NCBI GenBank assembly: GCA_030295235.1
Contig: AP026134.1
Span: 682,001 to 746,000 of the forward strand
Direction: 5' to 3'
From: Fistulifera solaris
Taxonomy: Eukaryota
Length of the DNA: 64,000 bases
The notes under the pieces are model-generated. The model saw only the letters and a program-made list of their open reading frames with translations, did no database searches and was not told the DNA's origin. Position 1 is the first letter of the stretch. Each line of letters begins with the position of its first letter. The translations under genes and the position numbers were made by a program. Shown piece by piece: positions 2,736 through 56,513 of the stretch.

Positions 2736-3427
2736 TGGCAATAATTTAGCCTTAAACCAAAGGATCATCAAGCAAATGGATAGACGATGAGTTTTATGGA
2801 AGTTTTGCGGCAAACAATATGGCAACGAAAATTCGTCTGGATGGATGCAAATAAAGTCGTCTGTCAATCCACCAGGGGATCTTCTCATCTCCCGTCTCGC
2901 GTCTTCGGACATTTTCCGGGACTGGATTTGTTACTTTGATGCTACCGTAACCCGCATGTTATAGGTTCTTGGTCACCCGCAGTAAAAAACACATTTAAAA
3001 CTGTAGTAACTCAATAGCGGTGCATTGGATGTAATCGCTTCAAATGATATCGCTCAAAATACAGCACCAACACGTCCACAATGGAAAGAAACTTGATTCT
3101 CTTGTGAAAGTAATGCGTTTTGAAATACATATTTTATGAGGTACAGAGGCATTTTTGATCGTAATAATTTCCGTGAAAAGTGTCCGGGACTGGGTTTACT
3201 GAGTCACCAATAAGTTACTTTTATAGTTAAAAATTCTAAATAGTAGAGAGCGACGTAAGCAGGTAATAGAGTAAAAGGAATATATTACGGAGTATCTGAT
3301 ATATTATATAATTGAATGACGATTGTCGCTTTTCAATAAAACAAATGGAAAGCCTAAAGAGTAGACGGTTTCATTGGCAGATATAAAACGGCAGTAGGAA
3401 ATCATCTTTTCGTCTCTGAAATCTCAG

Positions 3428-6402
3428 TCATTTTTCAAAACAATTCGTGAAAGAGCTGGGCCCAGAAACAAAGCAGCAGCCCCTTCGACCAAAAAAATCA
3501 GCGTCTTGACGTGAAGAGGACTTGCTTTTTTTCGGCCGACGTTGATTCGTTCTCGGCGATTTGCTTTTATTATAGCTGCTCGGTCCCCACCACCATGAAC
3601 TAGTCCTATTCATTGGTTGAAATCGAGGAAAAGTGGCAGATCGGATTCCTAGCGCACCCTTCACTTGGTCTAGAAATTGTGAAACTCGACCGTCACTCAT
3701 CCATGGATCATAGAGTTGCTGTTTTGGGTTGTTTGCACTTTCAAAATCAGGCGGTGACATATTAGGAGGAATGCTTCGAGCCCATCTTTGCAAAGAAAGT
3801 ATCGGCTCCTTAGTCTGCTTGTCGATAGGAAGAAGTGATTCTGGAAGACATTTTCGCAATAGTAAGCAGACTCGCAATCGATCTGCCATGTCGCTCAAAA
3901 ATTGATGAATTTCCAAATCACTAAGCTGCTGGCGTTTTAACCGTCTGTTTGAGTCATCGTCGTCTTTCTTCATCATGAACACCAATGTCGTCCATTTGCT
4001 TATCGACACTAAATGAAATGAAGTTGTGCTCAATGCTTTGTCTGAACTAACAAAAATCTTCCAGTGGTGAGACGGTCACGAAGCGAAGGACGGGATCGCA
4101 ACGCGAACAGTGATTCGAAGGTCCAGGTCCTGTACACGATCCACCCTGTCCAAGATGAATGAATGTTGGTGGATGCTCGTGCGCCACCAAATCATTTTCT
4201 GTCGCATCATGTATTGTTGTATCTCTGTAAGTGACTGGATTTGGGTAAACCAATTCGGATAATGGGTTCTTTACAAAAGACACATTTGGCTCATGAGCGG
4301 AGATTTGCTCACGGCCCTCTTCTCTCTGAGCAAACACGATGGGCGGCGCTTCGTCGTTTCGAAGATTTCGATGTTCATAATCCTCTTTTAAAGTACCATC
4401 AATGTAACTTTCCTTCCGCGACATTGCCGATGCGGCATGTTGAGCTCGATGCAAGTCGTCATTCTCGTCGTGGAAAGCTTGTTCGAGCAATTCGGTTAAA
4501 GTTTCCCACTCTGAATGTGGCCAGGGAAGAGGAGACTCCGTAATCTCTTGTAAATACTCCATAGCAGTCGTTGCTATTTTCTGACCTTCAAAAGTTTTCC
4601 GCCCCGAAAGACGTGCGTGAGGACTAGGGACCGATGTACCATTTGAATGAGCTCCCGGCAAAACATTTTGCAAGCTCGAAGACTTCGAAGACGCCGAGTG
4701 AATTGTGCTCCGAATGAAAACTGGCGGCCAGCAATCTTGATCTTTGCTCGAATGAACCATGTTGCTCGACAAACAAAATCCTTGCTCTGGATGGAAATTG
4801 GATGTTCCTTCGGCATCCAAGACGACTGCAACTGCTGCAGGTGGCCCGGATAGCTTTTCTTGACAACGAAGGAATTCCAGTATTTCAACTTCCAGATCAT
4901 CGTAACTGTTACTGATTGGAAACTTGGTGTTTACCAGCCCATACGTCGATGAGGCATGAACCCGAGTGCGATCCAAAAATACGGGCAGTGTTGCCAGGAT
5001 TCTTTTGAAACAAGATTCAAGCCACAGAGTTTGGCGCGTCTCTTTTGACTTATCAAATTTGGACATAGCGTGTTGCCATTGACGCATAAGTACAATACTT
5101 TCCAGGAACCTGTAGTGTAACAAACGTAAGTAACTTGAGTGTCGAGACGAATGACGGCTTGCAAGGCGCTGGAAATGATGCGCCGTCACAAGTGCTTTTT
5201 ATCGCATCTGATACTATGTGCAGGGTGGATTAGAAGGTAAACCAGGTGGGTGGTTTCCTTCCGAGTACGAAATACAAAAATAGTCACCCCGCAATGCACT
5301 ACAAAACAATCATGTTACTCACAAACATTGTTCCACCGCAAGAGAAGCCTCCAAAGCAAATTTCCAAGCTTGCACGAGTTGATAGGCGCGTTGGAATAAT
5401 GTAGAAAGAGAAAAGATCTTCAATGGCATCCAGTCGTGCCAGGACCATCCCCATATCGGTAGCTGCTTTCGCCACTGTCACAGTATCCGTCGATTCATGC
5501 AAAGATGCCTGTATTCGGATGAACTCACTTTGTGCCGCAACAAACAGGAGCACGGCGTCAAGTAGCGCACGAACTTTCTGTGCTGCCACGAGGACATCTC
5601 CTTGCGAAGACTCGGTTGCCAGGACGGGCTCGCACAATAAATGCTGCAAGCGAAACAGATCTTGTGTGCATCGTTGATACAAGCCAATCAAAGAAGGATC
5701 ACGACAGCAGTCTGCTGCAAACAGTTCGGCCGCCGCCAGTAGCCAGAATGGAGCAGCTACGAGGCGTTCCCATTCTTTTCTAACGCCAAAGCAGAAGGTG
5801 AATATGGTGCGGAAATAGATGACGAAGGAGATTCGGAAGGGGACGAAAAGGGCGACAATGAGTGGGATGATATAGGGCTAGCAGTCGATAACATTTGTTG
5901 GATGAGTTGCAAAGGCTGAAACACTGGACTTTTCGGCTCACTCAAGTGACCCCTCTGTGAATTTGGCGTGGAAGCCGGACTTTCTGTCTTCTGTAGCCAG
6001 TGACCCGCATAACGTGGGGTCGCCATGGATTCCAACCGCGCACAGGCCTTTGCGACCGAAAAAGGGATGGGCGTCGCCAGATCGTCGAGAAACTCTGGAA
6101 GAACTTGAAACAGTTTCAAGAGAGCTAGAGTCAGAAATGGTCTTGCGTTTTTCGACTCACATTTCTGAGGAGAATGCAAAGCTTGATGGGCTCGGGGATA
6201 AACATTGCTCTCAAGGGGACGCAACACAACATACGGTCCCCCCTTGTCCGGGTGTATCCATGCTGTTCTGTCGGACTAATAATGATCTCCCCAAAGAGGG
6301 AGTAGGAGGATTCACTACACCGAACTGTCGCTTCGATTTCATGGGCAGCTTCCATGAGGGTGAAGCAGGCGTGGCCGGTATTGTATTTGTGCTAGGCGAC
6401 AT
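3428..6402 (-). CDS. KICS2: KICSTOR subunit 2 (C12orf66/DUF2003)-like protein; split by one intron and several frameshifts
   Basis: Colinear blocks resembling human C12orf66: FLDDLATPIPFSVAKA, LLAAAE, IGLYQRC, LLFVAAQSEF, EQCL|FLESIVLM, LWLESCFKRILATLPVFL, AVVLDAEGTSNF, WPPVF, EWETLTELL, SDKALSTTSFHL, QFLSDMADRLR. Intron 5110-5322. Start codon uncertain. Confidence 0.65.
5137..5293 (-). ncRNA. Intronic box H/ACA snoRNA candidate
   Basis: Hairpin 1 (UGCGGGGUG/CACCCUGCA lower stem, GAAGG/CCUUC upper stem), H box AUAGUA (5217-5212), hairpin 2, then ACA (5142-5140). Both upper stems lie about 15 nt from their box. The 3' pocket (AAAAAGC + CGUC) is complementary to LSU GACG-UU-GCUUUUU. Confidence 0.72.
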
Positions 6403-8448: not shown

Positions 8449-9997
8449 TTAACACTCTTCGTCATCGGTATCCTCGTCGCTAGAGGATGACGAGGCATCA
8501 CTCACATGTGACGCTCGTTTTAGCACAATTCTATCCCCTGCAAGAGCGGTGAATGCCTTCTCTTCGTCGTGAAGCAACTGATCCAGATCTTTACCTTTTG
8601 GCTTGTCCGGTTTTTTACTTTTCTGCTTCTTTTCAATGGTTCGTGTTCCGCTTCCCGGCTTTCGTCGGCTAGTTGCTGAAGGTTCGGATCGATCCACTGA
8701 TTTGTGGACTCCAATAGTCGCACGAGGTCGGGCGCCAGTTTTTGAAAATTTCGCGTGAAAAAGCTATAGACCGTACCGTCAAACTTTCGTCCCACTCTCC
8801 CACAACGGTGTATGTAGGTCTCTAGATTTCCGGGAAAGTCGTAGTTGACGACAAATTTGGCGTCCTCCCAGTGGATGCCTCTCGCACACATATCGGTTGT
8901 TAACACAATTCCTTGTAAAGGCTTTTCACGTTCCCTCTGCGTGAGTCGACTGTGGTACTCCATCACTTTTAATTCGGTGAACTTGTTCAGCAGCTGCGAT
9001 ATGTACTGCAATGTAGAAATTTTGGCAAAAAGACTAGCCCAGGCCCGGCTACCTTCGATAGCGTTTTGGTCAATTTGGGGGGCTTTTTATGCTGAGCACA
9101 TACGTGAACGATTTGAGTAACTCGAGTAGGAATCTGGGACCAGATTTCCGTTCCTTCCAAGCGTCGTTTGTTAGATTGGTCGGTTTCGTCCTCGACCTGC
9201 TGCGATTCACTTGTAGGTGCTTTTCGAGTCGACACAACCTGAACTACAGTGACATTCGGAACCAGTCCGAATGCCGGTTCCATCCATTGTGTCCATACTT
9301 CTCGAGAGTTTGAGCTTTGAGTTGCACTGCAAAGTATGACTTTTGCTGGTTTGAGAGCTTTGGTTATATTATGCACTTGTTCCGAGAGCTCCGCATTCAG
9401 AGCTAAACGGTCCGCTTCGTCAAGGACAAGAACTGACAAATCGATTTCGCTATCCGGAAAGCTCTGGAGTATGTCCCACATTCGACCGGGAGTAGCAACT
9501 ATGATTGTGGACGACCCTCGACGCTGTTTGAATTCTGTAAATTGTGACTTCTTATTCACAGTGCCACCATACCAAGCCATTATTGAATGATGTGGACGAG
9601 CCATCCTTTGGCATTCCTGCTGCACCTGTCTGCACAATTCCCGTGTAGGAACCAGAACGACACTCAATTTCGTCTGCAGTAAAGGAAGTCCGTAAGCAAC
9701 GGTTTTCCCGCTTCCTGTCGGTGCCACAATTTGTATGGCAGATTCGTTCCAGGAACTCCAAACGTGTAGCTGAAACAGACTGGGCGACCAGCCAAGCTGC
9801 TTCCAGCAATCCCTCCACGCCGACCAGTGCGGAATCCCATGTGGCTCATCATTTGTTTCGAAATGATGGAGCGCAACCGACGGCTCTGCTGCTACTCCTT
9901 CATTTTCTCCCCCTGAATTCCACGAAGAAACGACACAATGTTCTTCGATTTGTACTTTGGATCTCCTGTTTTTCCTGCTACCACGTCTTTTCCCCAT
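8449..9997 (-). CDS. DEAD-box RNA helicase (subfamily unresolved)
   Basis: [40 protein letters not shown] distributed over three ORFs joined by frameshifts near 9028 and about 8630. Confidence 0.88.
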
Positions 9998-12619: not shown

Positions 12620-13317
12620 TAGTAAATGATTATTAATGCGAGCCTTTGACAGCAGAGAGCGTGCGACTCTTAACTTTGTTGTTGTATGCTATCTAGCCTT
12701 GGTCGTTACCCTCAGTAGCTGTTTTTTCGTTGAGCGTTCGCTCAAACGACGCGAGAAAATTCCAATAACAACTACTGTAATGAATCTCTTGTCCAAACGG
12801 TATCGATCTGGTCTTACTTTAGACGAGAACCTTCATGCTTCAAGTTCAAACTACTGGTGTAGAAAGAATAGGACGCTAATGATGAAACGGAACTGTCAAC
12901 GCTCAGAAGACCGAAATGATAAAACTCAATGCAGGGTCCATTTACTTTGTAGATTAGGATTTGATAGATGACAACAGGAATCAGAGAAAGTCTTTTTAGG
13001 GGGTAAATTTTGTTCAAGTAAGTCATGGATTACGATCTAGTCGCTATCGTTAAGGTGCAGGAGTCTCTAGAGCCCAATACAAAGACTCACAACTCATGAC
13101 TGAAATTCAGTCCTGAGAAACGGTTGCTTACAATTTGGTACTATAGTGAGTTATCGATGTGCAATAAACCGCAAGAGAAATCGCATTGGATCGAAGAAAA
13201 CAACCCGACAGATAAAATACCAGGTACAAGTAATGTATGATTGATGCACTTCATCGTCTTTCGTTTACATCAACTAAGCAATCGAGAATTCACTTTTCTT
13301 CTACGGCATTAGACAGT

Positions 13318-17973: not shown

Positions 17974-20790
17974 CTAGCGTTGGGTTAGACGAGTGATCAA
18001 ATCTGACTTCTTTCCAGAGACCGAAAGTCCTCTCTTTCGAAGCTCATCCTTTAACTGGGCAACGGTCATGGCGGAAAAGTCTACGACTGGGCTCTCTGGT
18101 ACACTTTCTTCAATCTCCCAGAATGCACCTTTTTCGCTTTCCTCAATTTCCATCAACGCTTCATCGGAAGGTTCTTCATCAGGGTCGAATCGTAATGATA
18201 TCTCGCGAGTTGTCCGTGCTAGTTGCTCTTGATCGAGTCGGTCCTCGTCGTTTTCATAGGTTTCTTTTATTTCATTCTTTCGAGAAAACTCAAACGCCTC
18301 TAAAGCAGCAATAAGATCGGCTCTTTTCCCTTTTGTGGAAAGACCTCTTGTACTTAGCTCCCCTCGTAGTTCGGCTAAACTCATTCCATACCAATCTCTT
18401 ATTTCCTCATTTTCAATTTGCGCAAAAGATTCAAACTGGGAATCTTTTCGGCCAGCTTCTGTGAAAACGTCAGATTCAAAATTTCTACAGCCGCCCGGGC
18501 TGCTGCGGCAAGCGCTTCTTCGTCAAATTCGTCGTCAAGATCCGGATATGGCTGATCCGATGGCACATCGAACATATCCTGTGATTCTTTAGGTGGCGTG
18601 ATTTCATCATCGTTGTCGACATCCATATCATCTTCATCAAACAAATCATTACTATACATCTCGACAGCTGCTCTAGCAGCTGCAGCAATGTCGTCCTCGA
18701 AGCTATTCACTTCGGTGTTCTCCGCCCATAGTTCCTCATCGCTGTGTAAATCTGTTGAGCTTAGGGAGTCGGAGGATTGAAGTCTAGCGATAAGTTCAGA
18801 TTTCTTCCCTGCTGTAGCCAGTCCTCTTCGATTTAATTCTTCTTTTAGCTGAACCACAGTAAATTTTGCCCATTCTGCTCCCCCCCGCAAGTATATCACC
18901 CTCTGCATTTCCCTTGATATATTCTTCGTTCCCCATTATTCCTTCTCCCTGAACTTCAAATTCCTCCAATCTCGCCACGAGATCAGCCTTTTACCAACAA
19001 CAGGGAGACCTCGAATCGAGCATTCTTCGCGAAGCTTTGCTACCGTCATCTTAATGTAGTTGGAGCCGACCTTTGCACTTACGTCGTTTGTCATTTGAGA
19101 GTTCCACTCGTTGCGTGTCGCAAGTTTCTCTTTGTTATTTCATCCTGTAGCTCTTCGTAACTGTCAACAGCAGCGCGAGCCGCAGCCGCAAGGGCCTCGA
19201 TGTCCAGTTCATCTTCGTCATCATCCACGATATCAGACAACGAAGATGCTAGCTTTTCCGCGGCATTCCATTCCGCGTTCTCGTCCTCGTCCGCCATGGC
19301 TTCCGCTAAATTAGCTATTTTCGCTTCTAAGCTCTGTTGAGCTGCACGAATAGAAGCCTGCCAATCATCATCACTAAAGTCATCATCAAAAGCGCGTCCT
19401 CATTTTCTTCAAGAAGCGCAGCTTCCCTTGCTTCCTGTTCCGCGATTAATGCATCTTCAGCTAGCTTCTTCTTCGCCCGTGCGACCTCTGCCAATCGCGC
19501 TTCTTCCGCGAGACGGGCTTCTTCGGCCACTCTCTCCTGCTCAATACGAGCCTCTTCCGCAAGTTGAGCTTCAAATGCAATGCGTTCCCGTTCAGCGCGC
19601 GCTTTTTCAGCTCGTCGAGCCTCTTCTGCAGCTCTTTCCTGTTCCATTCGTGTCTCTTCTGCCATCCGTGCTTCTTGTGCAATACGCTCCCGCTCAATGC
19701 GAGCTTCTTCTGCTAGTCGCGTTTCTTCTGCAAGTCTTTCCTTTTCGATTCGAGCCTCTTCTGCTAAACGGGCCTTTTCTGCTATCCTTTCATCCTCTAA
19801 TCGTTCTTCCTCGGCGATTCTCGCCTCCTCCTCTAGTCGTGCTAACTCGGCACGCTTGGCTTCTTCTAATCGAGCAGCCTCTAGCGCAAATCTTTGTTTA
19901 TCCAGCGCTTCGAAGCGGAATCGTGCTTCCATGAGCGATCTAGATGCTAATTCTGCTTTTTGCTGAGCAGCTTTCAACGCCGCTCTCTGTTTATCACGAG
20001 TTTCGTAGCGAAAGCGGACTTCCATCAGCAATCTCGTTGTTAACTCCACTTTCTGCCGACGACGCAATTCCTGCTCTTTTCCTTCGGCTTCCATCCGCCT
20101 TTCTCTTTGTAATCTTCTTTGCTCCGTGATGGCAGAGATCGCAGCTGGAAGAACGGAATTATCCATCTTGAAAAGCAAATCAGATGTTGCTTTTGCAGCA
20201 TCGAAACTAAGGCTTCCCAGTAAACGGATGACATTTCCCGCTGCGCCTGGTAAAATGGCTGCAACGGCTCCCCCTACGCTGGCGACCCCGGCTGTGACGA
20301 TCCCTTTCCCTCCAATGGCTCCTAATATGGCTGCCGCTAAAGCTGCGCCTTGAATCGTTTTCGAAGGGACTCCTTTTTCAAAATCAGTGGCGGCGAGACT
20401 TTTGAGCCACTCCCCGAATTGTGTAACGACGGTGCGAGCATCATCTTCCTCGAGTCTCGCTACTAACTTTTCTTTCGGGCCATCCGTGGGCAAGTCTCGA
20501 CTGGAAAGCTCTTCGCGCAAACTGCGTTCGGTAAAATCTTCCCATTTCAAGTCGTATGTCTCGCGATCTTTGATAAAAAATAGTTTGTCGGGTGGCGTCT
20601 CGGGCGGGGACGGTTTTCGCCGATTTTCGGGGTCGGACGCAGGAGGCCGCGGAGAAAACCGGCCTTTTGGATCACTGCGCAACTGCGTATGTCTCCGAGG
20701 ACGATGTAATTGGCTTTGTCGATAATGAAACGCAGCCCCGTCTGATATTAGTAGCCAACACAAGGTGGCGAAATGAATGAAAGTTCTCAT
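17974..20790 (-). CDS. Putative plastid-targeted multi-SAP-domain protein with hydrophobic segment and long E/R/A helix
   Basis: Signal peptide ending GAA-F followed by a basic transit-like region. Five SAP motifs (LxxELxxRGLxxxGxKxxLxxRL). Fragments are joined by several frameshifts. Confidence 0.75.
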
Positions 20791-30145: not shown

Positions 30146-30650
30146 GAGTCTTTGTGAAAGGAACGGGGAATGAGGCAGCTCATGTTATGCCCTAATTACT
30201 CTCGTAAGGAAAGGCAGGCAATGGGAGTGCGAGGTCGCTGCGTTGTGTCTTTGTTCTCGCAGGATTTTTCGTCGACAAACGGATCTTTTTCTTCACATCC
30301 ATCGTCGTGTTCCATCTGGGAACGTCAAAAAAAGAAAAGGCGCCAAAATGTTTCCCGAGTCCCGAGTCCTTCTGGAACTTCTAAAACAAAGGAGTGTCCA
30401 GAAAACCTGGGAGTGTTTTGTTCTACGTTTTACCCCTACAAAGTATACAAAGTATATAGACACTCCTTTGCTTCTAAAATCCGTCTATTTGGTAACTTGA
30501 ACCTTAACAGGTACAGGATGTGTGCGTCCTTTCGTCGACGGGACGAATGCCACTGACCTCAAACAACAGCATGCAACGCGCGACTTCATTTTACCTTTGA
30601 AGAACGCTCCTGAATTACGCTCCATATTTATCCAGAAACAACTAAATATA

Positions 30651-47273: not shown

Positions 47274-47857
47274 CTTTCTTTACCTCCTCTTGCAGTCTTT
47301 ATTTATGACAAATGCAAATCGATCTTATTTGTCATAAATGGGAACGATAGACATGCAACATGCAACATACAACATAATACCTGGTACCAGGTACTAAACT
47401 TGTTTTATGTGTGTTTCATCTTGCGGCTGGTTGCTTTGTGGCGACGCGGTCAGACGTGTCATTCTTGAGTACCACAAAGACACGGTAACCACTCGGATCT
47501 TGTTGCAATTGATAAGTCTTATTATTTCTAGATTCTCCAGGTCTAGGGCCTGAGTGCAAAGCATAATTTAGCGTTTTAGCCTATGTACACTAAGTCTCAG
47601 CATTGTCGGCACTCGTTGAAGGTTCGTCTAATCGAATATGCTAATAGCAACGCGTTTAGTTTTAAGATAAGTGGCAGGGAGTGGCACAGCGAGATTGTAT
47701 GCGACGCGAGCCGAACTCTCTTCCATAACAAGAGCTCCAAGATACTGAGCGCTAGATCGACGAGCACTGCTGATCTCCTAGAGTTTAGAAAGCGGATTGT
47801 GCAATTTGTCGCTTGACCGATAGCAAATAAACTACGTTCTTAAGATGGCAACGACGA

Positions 47858-55549: not shown

Positions 55550-56513
55550 TCATCGCTGCTGCCCTAGTAGTTGGAGAAGAGAAAGTAATGTCTGAGCCTC
55601 CGGAGTTTGGTTCTGATTCATTCGGAGGCGATTCCGGAGGAGTAAGTCAGTTAGATGTTGAACGCGCTGTAATTCCTCTAATAGTTCCGCTACAGACAGA
55701 TTTTGGGGGATAGGCGTATGTAGCGAGAGCAGGAAGGGAAGCAATTGAATCAAGTCATTGGTATTCGTCCCTCCCGCGGACGCCTGCAATAACTGCTGTA
55801 GCTGCGAACCTAGATTGGCGCCGCCATCCGACGAAGGAGGAGGCGCCTGCGCATTTTGCTCACGAGAAAGTTCGGTGTGCTGCGGTAAACGCGGGTCGAC
55901 GCTCGGTTTGGACGGTGTAGTGCGTGCCGGTCTTTCCGACGACGCCAGTCTTTCTTCTGCCGCTTCACGAATTAGTTTTTCACTGTATTCTCCCATTTCT
56001 TTCTTGTACCGTGCTCTGTCCTTCTCTGCAGCCTCTTCATACTTCTGTTTCTGTTCTTCTGAGAGCGCTTTCCACCTCGTTCCTATAGCTGCACTCATTC
56101 CTGATGCGCGGATTCGATTTGTTGAGCAAGGAAATCGCAGCCACGAGTAGACACAACAGTATAACATGCATCTCAGCACACTTCATGCTCACCTAGAAAT
56201 GGATTTTGTCCTTCAAAATCCTTGTCATCGCGCTTTTCTTCCAACCACTTGACACGCTCTTCTTTGAAAAGAAATTGTACGCGGAAAGGGGACGCGATGG
56301 ATAGCCATCGGGCTTTTTTGCCTTTTTTCGCTTCTTTTGTTTGTTGTCGGCTTCGCCCTCGTCACGGGGCCTTTTTCCGTCGTGATCCGAGTCATGGTCC
56401 GAATCGGGATGATCTTCTTGGTCCGACGACGAGGATGCAGAGGAAGAACCGTCCGCAGCGGTAGCTCCGTTCTCCAGCGACGCCAACTTTTCGTTGGCTT
56501 CGTTCGATGCCAT
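55550..56513 (-). CDS. HMG-box DNA-binding protein
   Basis: PSRPLSAYNFFFKEER...|MSAAIGTRWKALSEEQKQKYEEAAEKDRARY. Intron about 56101-56192, one frameshift near 56268, Q/L-rich tail. Confidence 0.88.

Follow-up and report, generated by a model that had tools for sequence, protein, structure and literature searches.

The human box H/ACA small nucleolar RNA (snoRNA) SNORA21 (ACA21), located in an intron of the ribosomal-protein gene RPL23, is reported to guide the pseudouridylation of U4401 in 28S ribosomal RNA (rRNA), and its second target is given as U4480 in the lines of PMC5552212 that deal with this snoRNA. In Arabidopsis, the mapped 25S pseudouridines (psi) include U2816, U2833, U2844, U2855, U2870, U2884 and U2913 (Streit and Schleiff 2021, Suppl. 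Table 2). The same table credits the mapping of U2844 to Sun et al. 2019, equates this position with human U4401, enters its snoRNA as 'nd' and gives no yeast site; it also lists psi783 (guided by snoR82; yeast counterpart U766), which is the first U of the UGGAUUUGAGUA tract of the large subunit (LSU) rRNA. With the guide of psi2844 entered in this way, no plant sequence is known for a homology comparison. Concerning diatoms, we found no catalogue of H/ACA snoRNAs in the literature at the level of titles and abstracts. We describe here a 213-nucleotide (nt) intron lying in a stretch of 64,000 nt from the diatom Fistulifera solaris (contig AP026134.1; hereafter the window, whose numbering is used throughout). 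This intron, which interrupts a gene labelled KICS2-like, very probably encodes a box H/ACA snoRNA of about 160 nt whose 3' pocket would target the homologue of psi2844/psi4401.

The class is well known and the element itself is a new, ordinary example of an H/ACA snoRNA. As far as SNORA21 is described in the lines cited above, the predicted diatom RNA has in common with it the class, the expression from an intron and, for its 3' hairpin, the target U4401. Conversely, no similarity between the two is detectable (Rfam cmscan, nothing at E up to 10), and the human host is a ribosomal-protein gene whereas the diatom host is the KICS2-like gene. The diatom element thus appears to do the job of one SNORA21 arm without detectable homology to it. 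It would provide a concrete guide-target pair for a domain V pseudouridine that is common to plants and humans and has no yeast entry in the table, and it suggests that H/ACA guides can be traced across diatoms through the read-through open reading frame (ORF) calls of a conserved host intron, in a case where Rfam misses the snoRNA.

Host intron and fold of the element

The 213-nt intron at 5110-5322, which a previous model-made reading of the letters of the window (the sequence-only reading) had delimited at these same positions, is real, since spliced contigs and the junction of an annotated protein agree on it. Read from 5322 to 5110 on the minus strand, it starts with GUGAGU and ends with CUACAG. 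Contigs from two of four public runs (X2 and X4) omit exactly 213 nt at 5107/5321, a cut that a shift of +2 brings to 5110-5322, where the intron ends are CT..AC when read on the plus strand and GT..AG on the minus strand; the shorter side of the splice joint is supported by 56 nt in the X2 contig and by 26 nt in the X4 contig. The runs X1-X4 are not on record as RNA and their RNA nature is presumed, X2 and X4 containing the spliced form. This 213-nt skip was the only joint found when the four runs were aligned on 4000-6400, and no second intron of the host gene was seen within 3400-6400. Across the junction, marked here by a slash, the spliced frame reads LAVEQCL/FLESIVLMRQWQH and matches the annotated 920-amino-acid (aa) F. 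solaris protein P0005, which belongs to the cluster of P0002, itself 81% identical to the window exon.

The whole intron has a minimum free energy (MFE) of -66 kcal/mol (z -4.47), none of 200 shuffles being as stable, and its 163-nt core at 5137-5299 has an MFE of -50.5 kcal/mol (z -3.37). The core folds as hairpin, AUAGUA, hairpin and ACA, which is the hairpin-hinge-hairpin-tail arrangement of box H/ACA RNAs (Table 1), and the distance from the upper stem to the box is 14 nt in the 5' hairpin and 15 nt in the 3' hairpin, within the 14-16 nt of this class. The same succession of elements, with about 15 nt ahead of each box, had been proposed by the sequence-only reading, and the folding check for which it had called agrees with this description. 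The energy of the 5' hairpin is -26.5 kcal/mol with the pockets kept open, and the 3' end of the predicted snoRNA was set 3 nt past the ACA by the family rule.

Table 1. Positions of the host gene, the intron and the parts of the predicted snoRNA in the window
Feature	Position	Strand	Description
Host gene	~3430-6400	minus	KICS2-like label; family of 76 representatives, three named members all diatoms
Host-gene intron	5110..5322	minus	213 nt, GUGAGU...CUACAG; X2/X4 contigs, P0005 junction
Predicted H/ACA snoRNA, ~157-163 nt	5137..5299	minus	from the fold; 5' end approximate
5' hairpin	5219..5293	minus	lower stem 5285-5293/5219-5227, 9 base pairs (bp) (intron nt 30-38/96-104)
5' hairpin, 5' pocket strand	5263..5284	minus	22 nt; ...GUACUC adjoins upper stem
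5' hairpin upper stem-loop	5232-5262	minus	12 bp, one bulged A (intron nt 61-91)
5' hairpin, 3' pocket strand AAUC	5228..5231	minus	4 nt, 14 nt before H box
H box AUAGUA	5212..5217	minus	fits ANANNA; one nt past 5' hairpin; intron nt 106-111
3' hairpin	5144..5208	minus	lower stem 5202-5208/5144-5150, 6 pairs and a U-C mismatch (intron nt 115-121/173-179)
3' hairpin 5' guide UAAAAAGCA	5193..5201	minus	predicted to pair with LSU GCUUUUUG
3' hairpin upper stem-loop	5158-5192	minus	7+5 bp, bulged C (intron nt 131-165)
3' hairpin 3' guide CCGUCAU	5151..5157	minus	CGUC predicted to pair with LSU GACG; begins 15 nt ahead of ACA
ACA box	5140..5142	minus	one nt past lower stem; intron nt 181-183
Intron tail, 27 nt	5110..5136	minus	predicted snoRNA 3' end to 3' splice site

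The 3' pocket and its predicted target in LSU rRNA

Targets were sought with a snoGPS-like scan, which keeps the target U and the base after it free, requires pairing of the flanks with both strands of the pocket and tolerates 0-1 free guide nt at the upper stem. The rRNA set consisted of the complete small subunit (SSU), 5.8S and LSU rRNAs of L097 and of the LSU rRNAs of L088 (divergent) and L080. The 3' hairpin offers a bipartite pocket around an unpaired U-N, as H/ACA guides do: CGUC pairs with GACG and UAAAAAGC with GCUUUUUG, through 4+7 Watson-Crick pairs and one G-U. The resulting site, GACG[UU]GCUUUUUG (4+8 bp, score 11.5), carried by the LSU tract GACGUUGCUUUUUG, was the top site in every LSU tested, and its score was attained by only 3 of 400 shuffled guide pairs over the full rRNA set. 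The pairing of 4+7 nt around UU that had been read from the letters is therefore reproduced, with one G-U added.

The 17-nt LSU motif on which that pairing had been built is a real one. It was retrieved at no fewer than 68 genome_contigs loci, and 36 of these 68 share one extended LSU context, and five of the shared-context loci, together with two full rRNA gene (rDNA) stretches, score as Rfam LSU_rRNA_eukarya. Since the sampled loci score in this way, the loci of this context represent eukaryotic rDNA inside prokaryote assemblies; these 36 of the 68 matches (loci L018-L085), often lying on short low-coverage contigs, correspond to contamination of these assemblies. The single locus carrying the motif in viral_contigs is not rRNA, and Rfam found no rRNA within the window. 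Regarding the rRNA sources themselves, the fungal-type LSU of L097 holds a group I intron at 8854-9196 (Rfam, 109.5 bits), and in L080 (1-1057, 1540-4017) the SSU starts about 480 nt past the LSU 3' end, which makes a very short spacer.

With Arabidopsis position 2844 assigned to the first U of the site, the six other Arabidopsis/human psi positions of this stretch can be placed, and five of them coincide with a U in 26 or more of the 28 LSU loci. Only U2884 departs from this, as it lies in a variable stretch and is a U in 11 of the 28 loci. A shift of the register by one base makes U2833 and U2855 land on C in the L080 sequence. Because the psi positions align in this register, the predicted target corresponds to Arabidopsis psi2844 and to human 28S U4401, and the 3' hairpin most likely guides the modification of their diatom counterpart.

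By analogy with known H/ACA particles, the intron would be released by splicing and debranching, and exonucleases would then trim it to a particle containing Cbf5/dyskerin, Nop10, Nhp2 and Gar1. The pocket of the 3' hairpin would pair with the LSU rRNA on both sides of the UU (GACG-UU-GCUUUUUG). The first U would stay free of pairing where the upper stem begins, at 15 nt from the ACA, and would there be isomerised to pseudouridine by Cbf5. The modified U would be the homologue of psi2844/psi4401, which lies close to the peptidyl-transferase centre in domain V. The accumulation of the snoRNA, its ends, its protein binding and the modification of its target are all predicted here.

Conservation in other diatoms and rival explanations

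An exhaustive protein search returned 76 representatives of the host family, the named ones being from Fistulifera solaris, Mayamaea pseudoterrestris and Entomoneis paludosa. Spliced full-length models read C[LRQH]/[FLH] over the junction, and many family members are ORF calls whose N-termini extend upstream of the conserved exon start into the intron. The overhangs of 21 such proteins were examined, P0018 and P0033 being swapped for the longer members of their clusters P0084 and P0086; two (P0016 and P0027, less than 8 aa) were unscorable, leaving 19, and P0031, P0050, P0062 and P0076 (overhang of 10 aa or less) as well as 44 of the 76 representatives stood outside the examined set. Each overhang was tested for codon compatibility, that is whether AAAAGC, 25-60 nt, CCGUC, 8-11 nt and ACA are allowed in succession under any codon choice. 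This composite motif is allowed in seven of the 19 overhangs, corresponding to seven of the eight that reach at least 34 aa (P0009, P0032, P0037, P0038, P0055, P0084 and P0086), with gaps of 34-51 nt and 8-11 nt, compared with 36 and 10 nt in the window, and shuffles of the same peptides permit it in 2-5% of cases. Two shorter overhangs (P0004 and P0039) allow CCGUC followed by ACA, bringing the total to nine of 19 peptides, and seven further overhangs, 8-33 aa long, are uninformative.

Recurring peptides such as KST(S)CD and RGAV are read in different frames from the same nucleotides, and P0003 is identical to the window in all 11 residues encoded by intron nt 148-180, the adjoining protein being only 59% identical. 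In P0084, the read-through starts in the upstream exon and spans the entire intron (about 190 nt). P0084, P0086 and P0037 can accommodate the guide GUACUCGG of the 5' hairpin at 69, 69 and 75 nt, respectively, ahead of AAAAGC, compared with 69 nt in the window, and P0055 at 46 nt, so that three of the four peptides reaching that far fit the expected place. The intron tail is conserved neither in sequence nor in length among the relatives, the ACA standing 27-89 nt before the exon. In the 5' strand of the upper stem, the MVP start of P0003 and P0004 implies GGUNC where the window has GGCGC (by hand); judging from degenerate codons, the T residue of P0004 calls for an A across from the U of GGUNC, which would be a compensatory change. 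A conserved H box AUAGUA was considered and discarded, as it is compatible near the expected place in P0037 only. Judged by these read-through translations, the guides and the ACA appear conserved in the same intron across other diatoms. The claim of the sequence-only reading that the intron holds an H/ACA pseudouridylation guide is accordingly the best-supported one, its target being a mapped psi in Arabidopsis and human and its elements being codon-compatible in diatoms.

Searches for orthologous DNA gave nothing further: a protein-pattern scan of metagenome contigs returned 97 matches, none of them confirmed, and an 18-nt snoRNA pattern returned 17 loci unrelated beyond the 18-mer. Both patterns were too narrow, since the JGI contigs do carry orthologues. 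No homologous protein was found for the exon plus the in-frame intron at lengths of 100-321 aa.

A number of results run counter to the interpretation as a guide for the psi2844/psi4401 homologue and have to be weighed with its alternatives. A lenient detector (two stems per unit, 14-16 nt spacing, ANANNA and ACA), with dinucleotide-shuffled windows as controls, found seven architectures in the window versus 3-9 (mean 6.4) in ten dinucleotide shuffles. As the count is at the level of the shuffles, the bare architecture proves nothing, and this is what a chance fold in a long intron would predict; Rfam, moreover, gave no match in the window at the gathering threshold and none at E up to 10 in 4900-5500. 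Such a chance fold is nevertheless extremely improbable, because only five of 265 chance architectures (40 shuffled windows) are as stable per nt as this element (-0.32), which places it in their top 2%, and because it is conserved and points at a psi site already known. The H/ACA RNA might also be genuine and its LSU match fortuitous, the real target being another rRNA site, a small nuclear RNA (snRNA), as for small Cajal body-specific RNAs (scaRNA-like), or none (orphan). Eleven of 147 chance architectures (25 shuffled windows) score at least 11.5 as a guide somewhere in rRNA, the duplex of the 3' guide has just 4 bp, with one unpaired guide nt on each side beside the upper stem, and the scan used the rRNAs of unrelated eukaryotes rather than those of this diatom, and no diatom snRNAs. 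The 5' hairpin is moreover without a significant target: its best match is equalled by 57 of 400 shuffled guides and is not above chance, so that the sequence-only reading had rightly flagged its own 5'-pocket target as less certain. A fortuitous match is unlikely all the same, considering that the site coincides exactly with a pseudouridine that has been mapped in two kingdoms and that distant diatoms retain both guide strands and the distance between them, whereas the tail and portions of the stems differ.

The conservation evidence has its own weaknesses, as it was read by degenerate back-translation of ORF calls and not from DNA, and as the set carries a selection bias, ORF calls existing only where the intron has no stops. 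The composite motif is missing in P0046 (48 aa), which is a real miss, P0003 keeps CCGUC and has AAR in place of ACA, and the motif is absent in ten of the 19 overhangs, most of them too short to inform. What is conserved could also be a structured element of the intron that serves some other purpose, such as the control of host splicing or expression, and only resembles an H/ACA RNA: across diatoms, its location in this intron of the host gene is constant, and its RNA product is a prediction. We regard this as very unlikely, since the conserved parts are those that a guide needs, namely two short single-stranded tracts complementary to rRNA, and since the distance to the ACA (8-11 nt; 10 in the window) and the spacing from hairpin to hairpin (69, 69 and 75 nt) are kept. 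It is the combination of stability, guide, known target site, intron location and conservation that supports a guide of the psi2844/psi4401 homologue.

The 5' pocket, the host gene and other features of the locus

The 5' hairpin probably guides a second site. Its best match in the scan is UGGAU[UU]GAGUA or UGGAUU[UG]AGUA of the fungal-type LSU (5+5 or 6+4 bp), and no other site in the rRNAs scanned pairs with both halves of the 5' pocket. The best candidate for a second target would be a U in the LSU tract UGGAUUUGAGUA, beside psi783, that is the tract in which the Arabidopsis snoR82 site lies. Read in the canonical register, the pocket points to the second or third U of the tract, 1 or 2 nt 3' of psi783, which sets it apart from the snoR82 target, in addition to the chance level of the match. 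The exact Arabidopsis psi783 position was rejected, since it requires a non-canonical 3-nt spacer beside the upper stem (by hand). We take the yeast counterpart of psi783 to be psi776, presumably guided by snR80. The second site of SNORA21, which we assume to be U4470 in the A-loop, is not fitted by the diatom 5' hairpin either: at the equivalent of human U4470, the 5' strand gives 1 bp and this candidate was rejected, and the 3' strand could pair with GGAUUG of the A-loop site (both by eye).

The sequence-only reading had placed the snoRNA in a KICS2-like gene, putatively of the TORC1 pathway, rather than in a ribosomal-protein gene. The latter part holds, the host not being a ribosomal-protein gene, and the name itself is weakly backed. 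A profile built from seven host-family members matches KICSTOR subunit 2 in PDB at E 3e-4 (22.3 bits, profile positions 187-390), a weak match, Pfam PF09404 (C12orf66_like) is found in one of the seven members (E 0.008), and no Pfam match was found in the window exon translations or in P0005. The host family is without a Pfam family of its own; in its N-terminal half it bears a remote similarity to KICSTOR subunit 2, and its C-terminal half displays strongly conserved blocks with no match. The label KICS2-like would thus denote a remote homology, weakly supported by these scores, and a role of the host in the TORC1 pathway is something that we only infer.

A broader proposal is that the snoRNA and its KICS2-like host form a fixed pair in raphid diatoms, coupling rRNA modification to nutrient signalling and supplying a guide of the psi2844 type. 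If so, the guide would be made only when the KICS2-like gene, a putative amino-acid-sensing brake of TORC1, is transcribed and spliced, the modification of the site would be tied to nutrient signalling and not to ribosomal-protein expression as in animals, and the element would represent the missing guide type for plant psi2844. We consider this proposal rather unlikely.

Compared with the reads, the window shows 1-nt differences at 4052/4053, 5411/5412, 5775/5778 and 6238. These 1-nt indels of the window, together with the T-run near 3494-3500, account for what look like frame breaks in the host gene. The single-base indels are mostly located in homopolymer runs, and the reading frame is broken in the window alone, not in the reads, which looks like assembly error of the long-read type.

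The run X1 contains a second version of the locus beside the one identical to the window, with 17 differences over 201 nt (4512-4712), 20 over 240 (5248-5487) and 11 over 252 (5458-5709), or about 4-9%. The genome of F. solaris is hybrid or highly heterozygous, and the second X1 version fits such a genome. Over 5070-5277, a single X1 contig was found, whose sole difference is G>A at 5185, on the bulged C of the 3' upper stem, and its depth of 31.9, versus 12-22, is the highest among the X1 records listed. This points, without proof, to a snoRNA that hardly differs between the two genome copies.

Besides the element described here, the detector reported six other H/ACA-like architectures in the window, at 55668-55841, 47330-47492, 30308-30479 (two ACA positions), 19988-20158 and 12683-12836. 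Their number is as in the shuffles and their best guide scores range from 7.5 to 11. All seven detector matches are minus-strand ones, the plus strand giving none.

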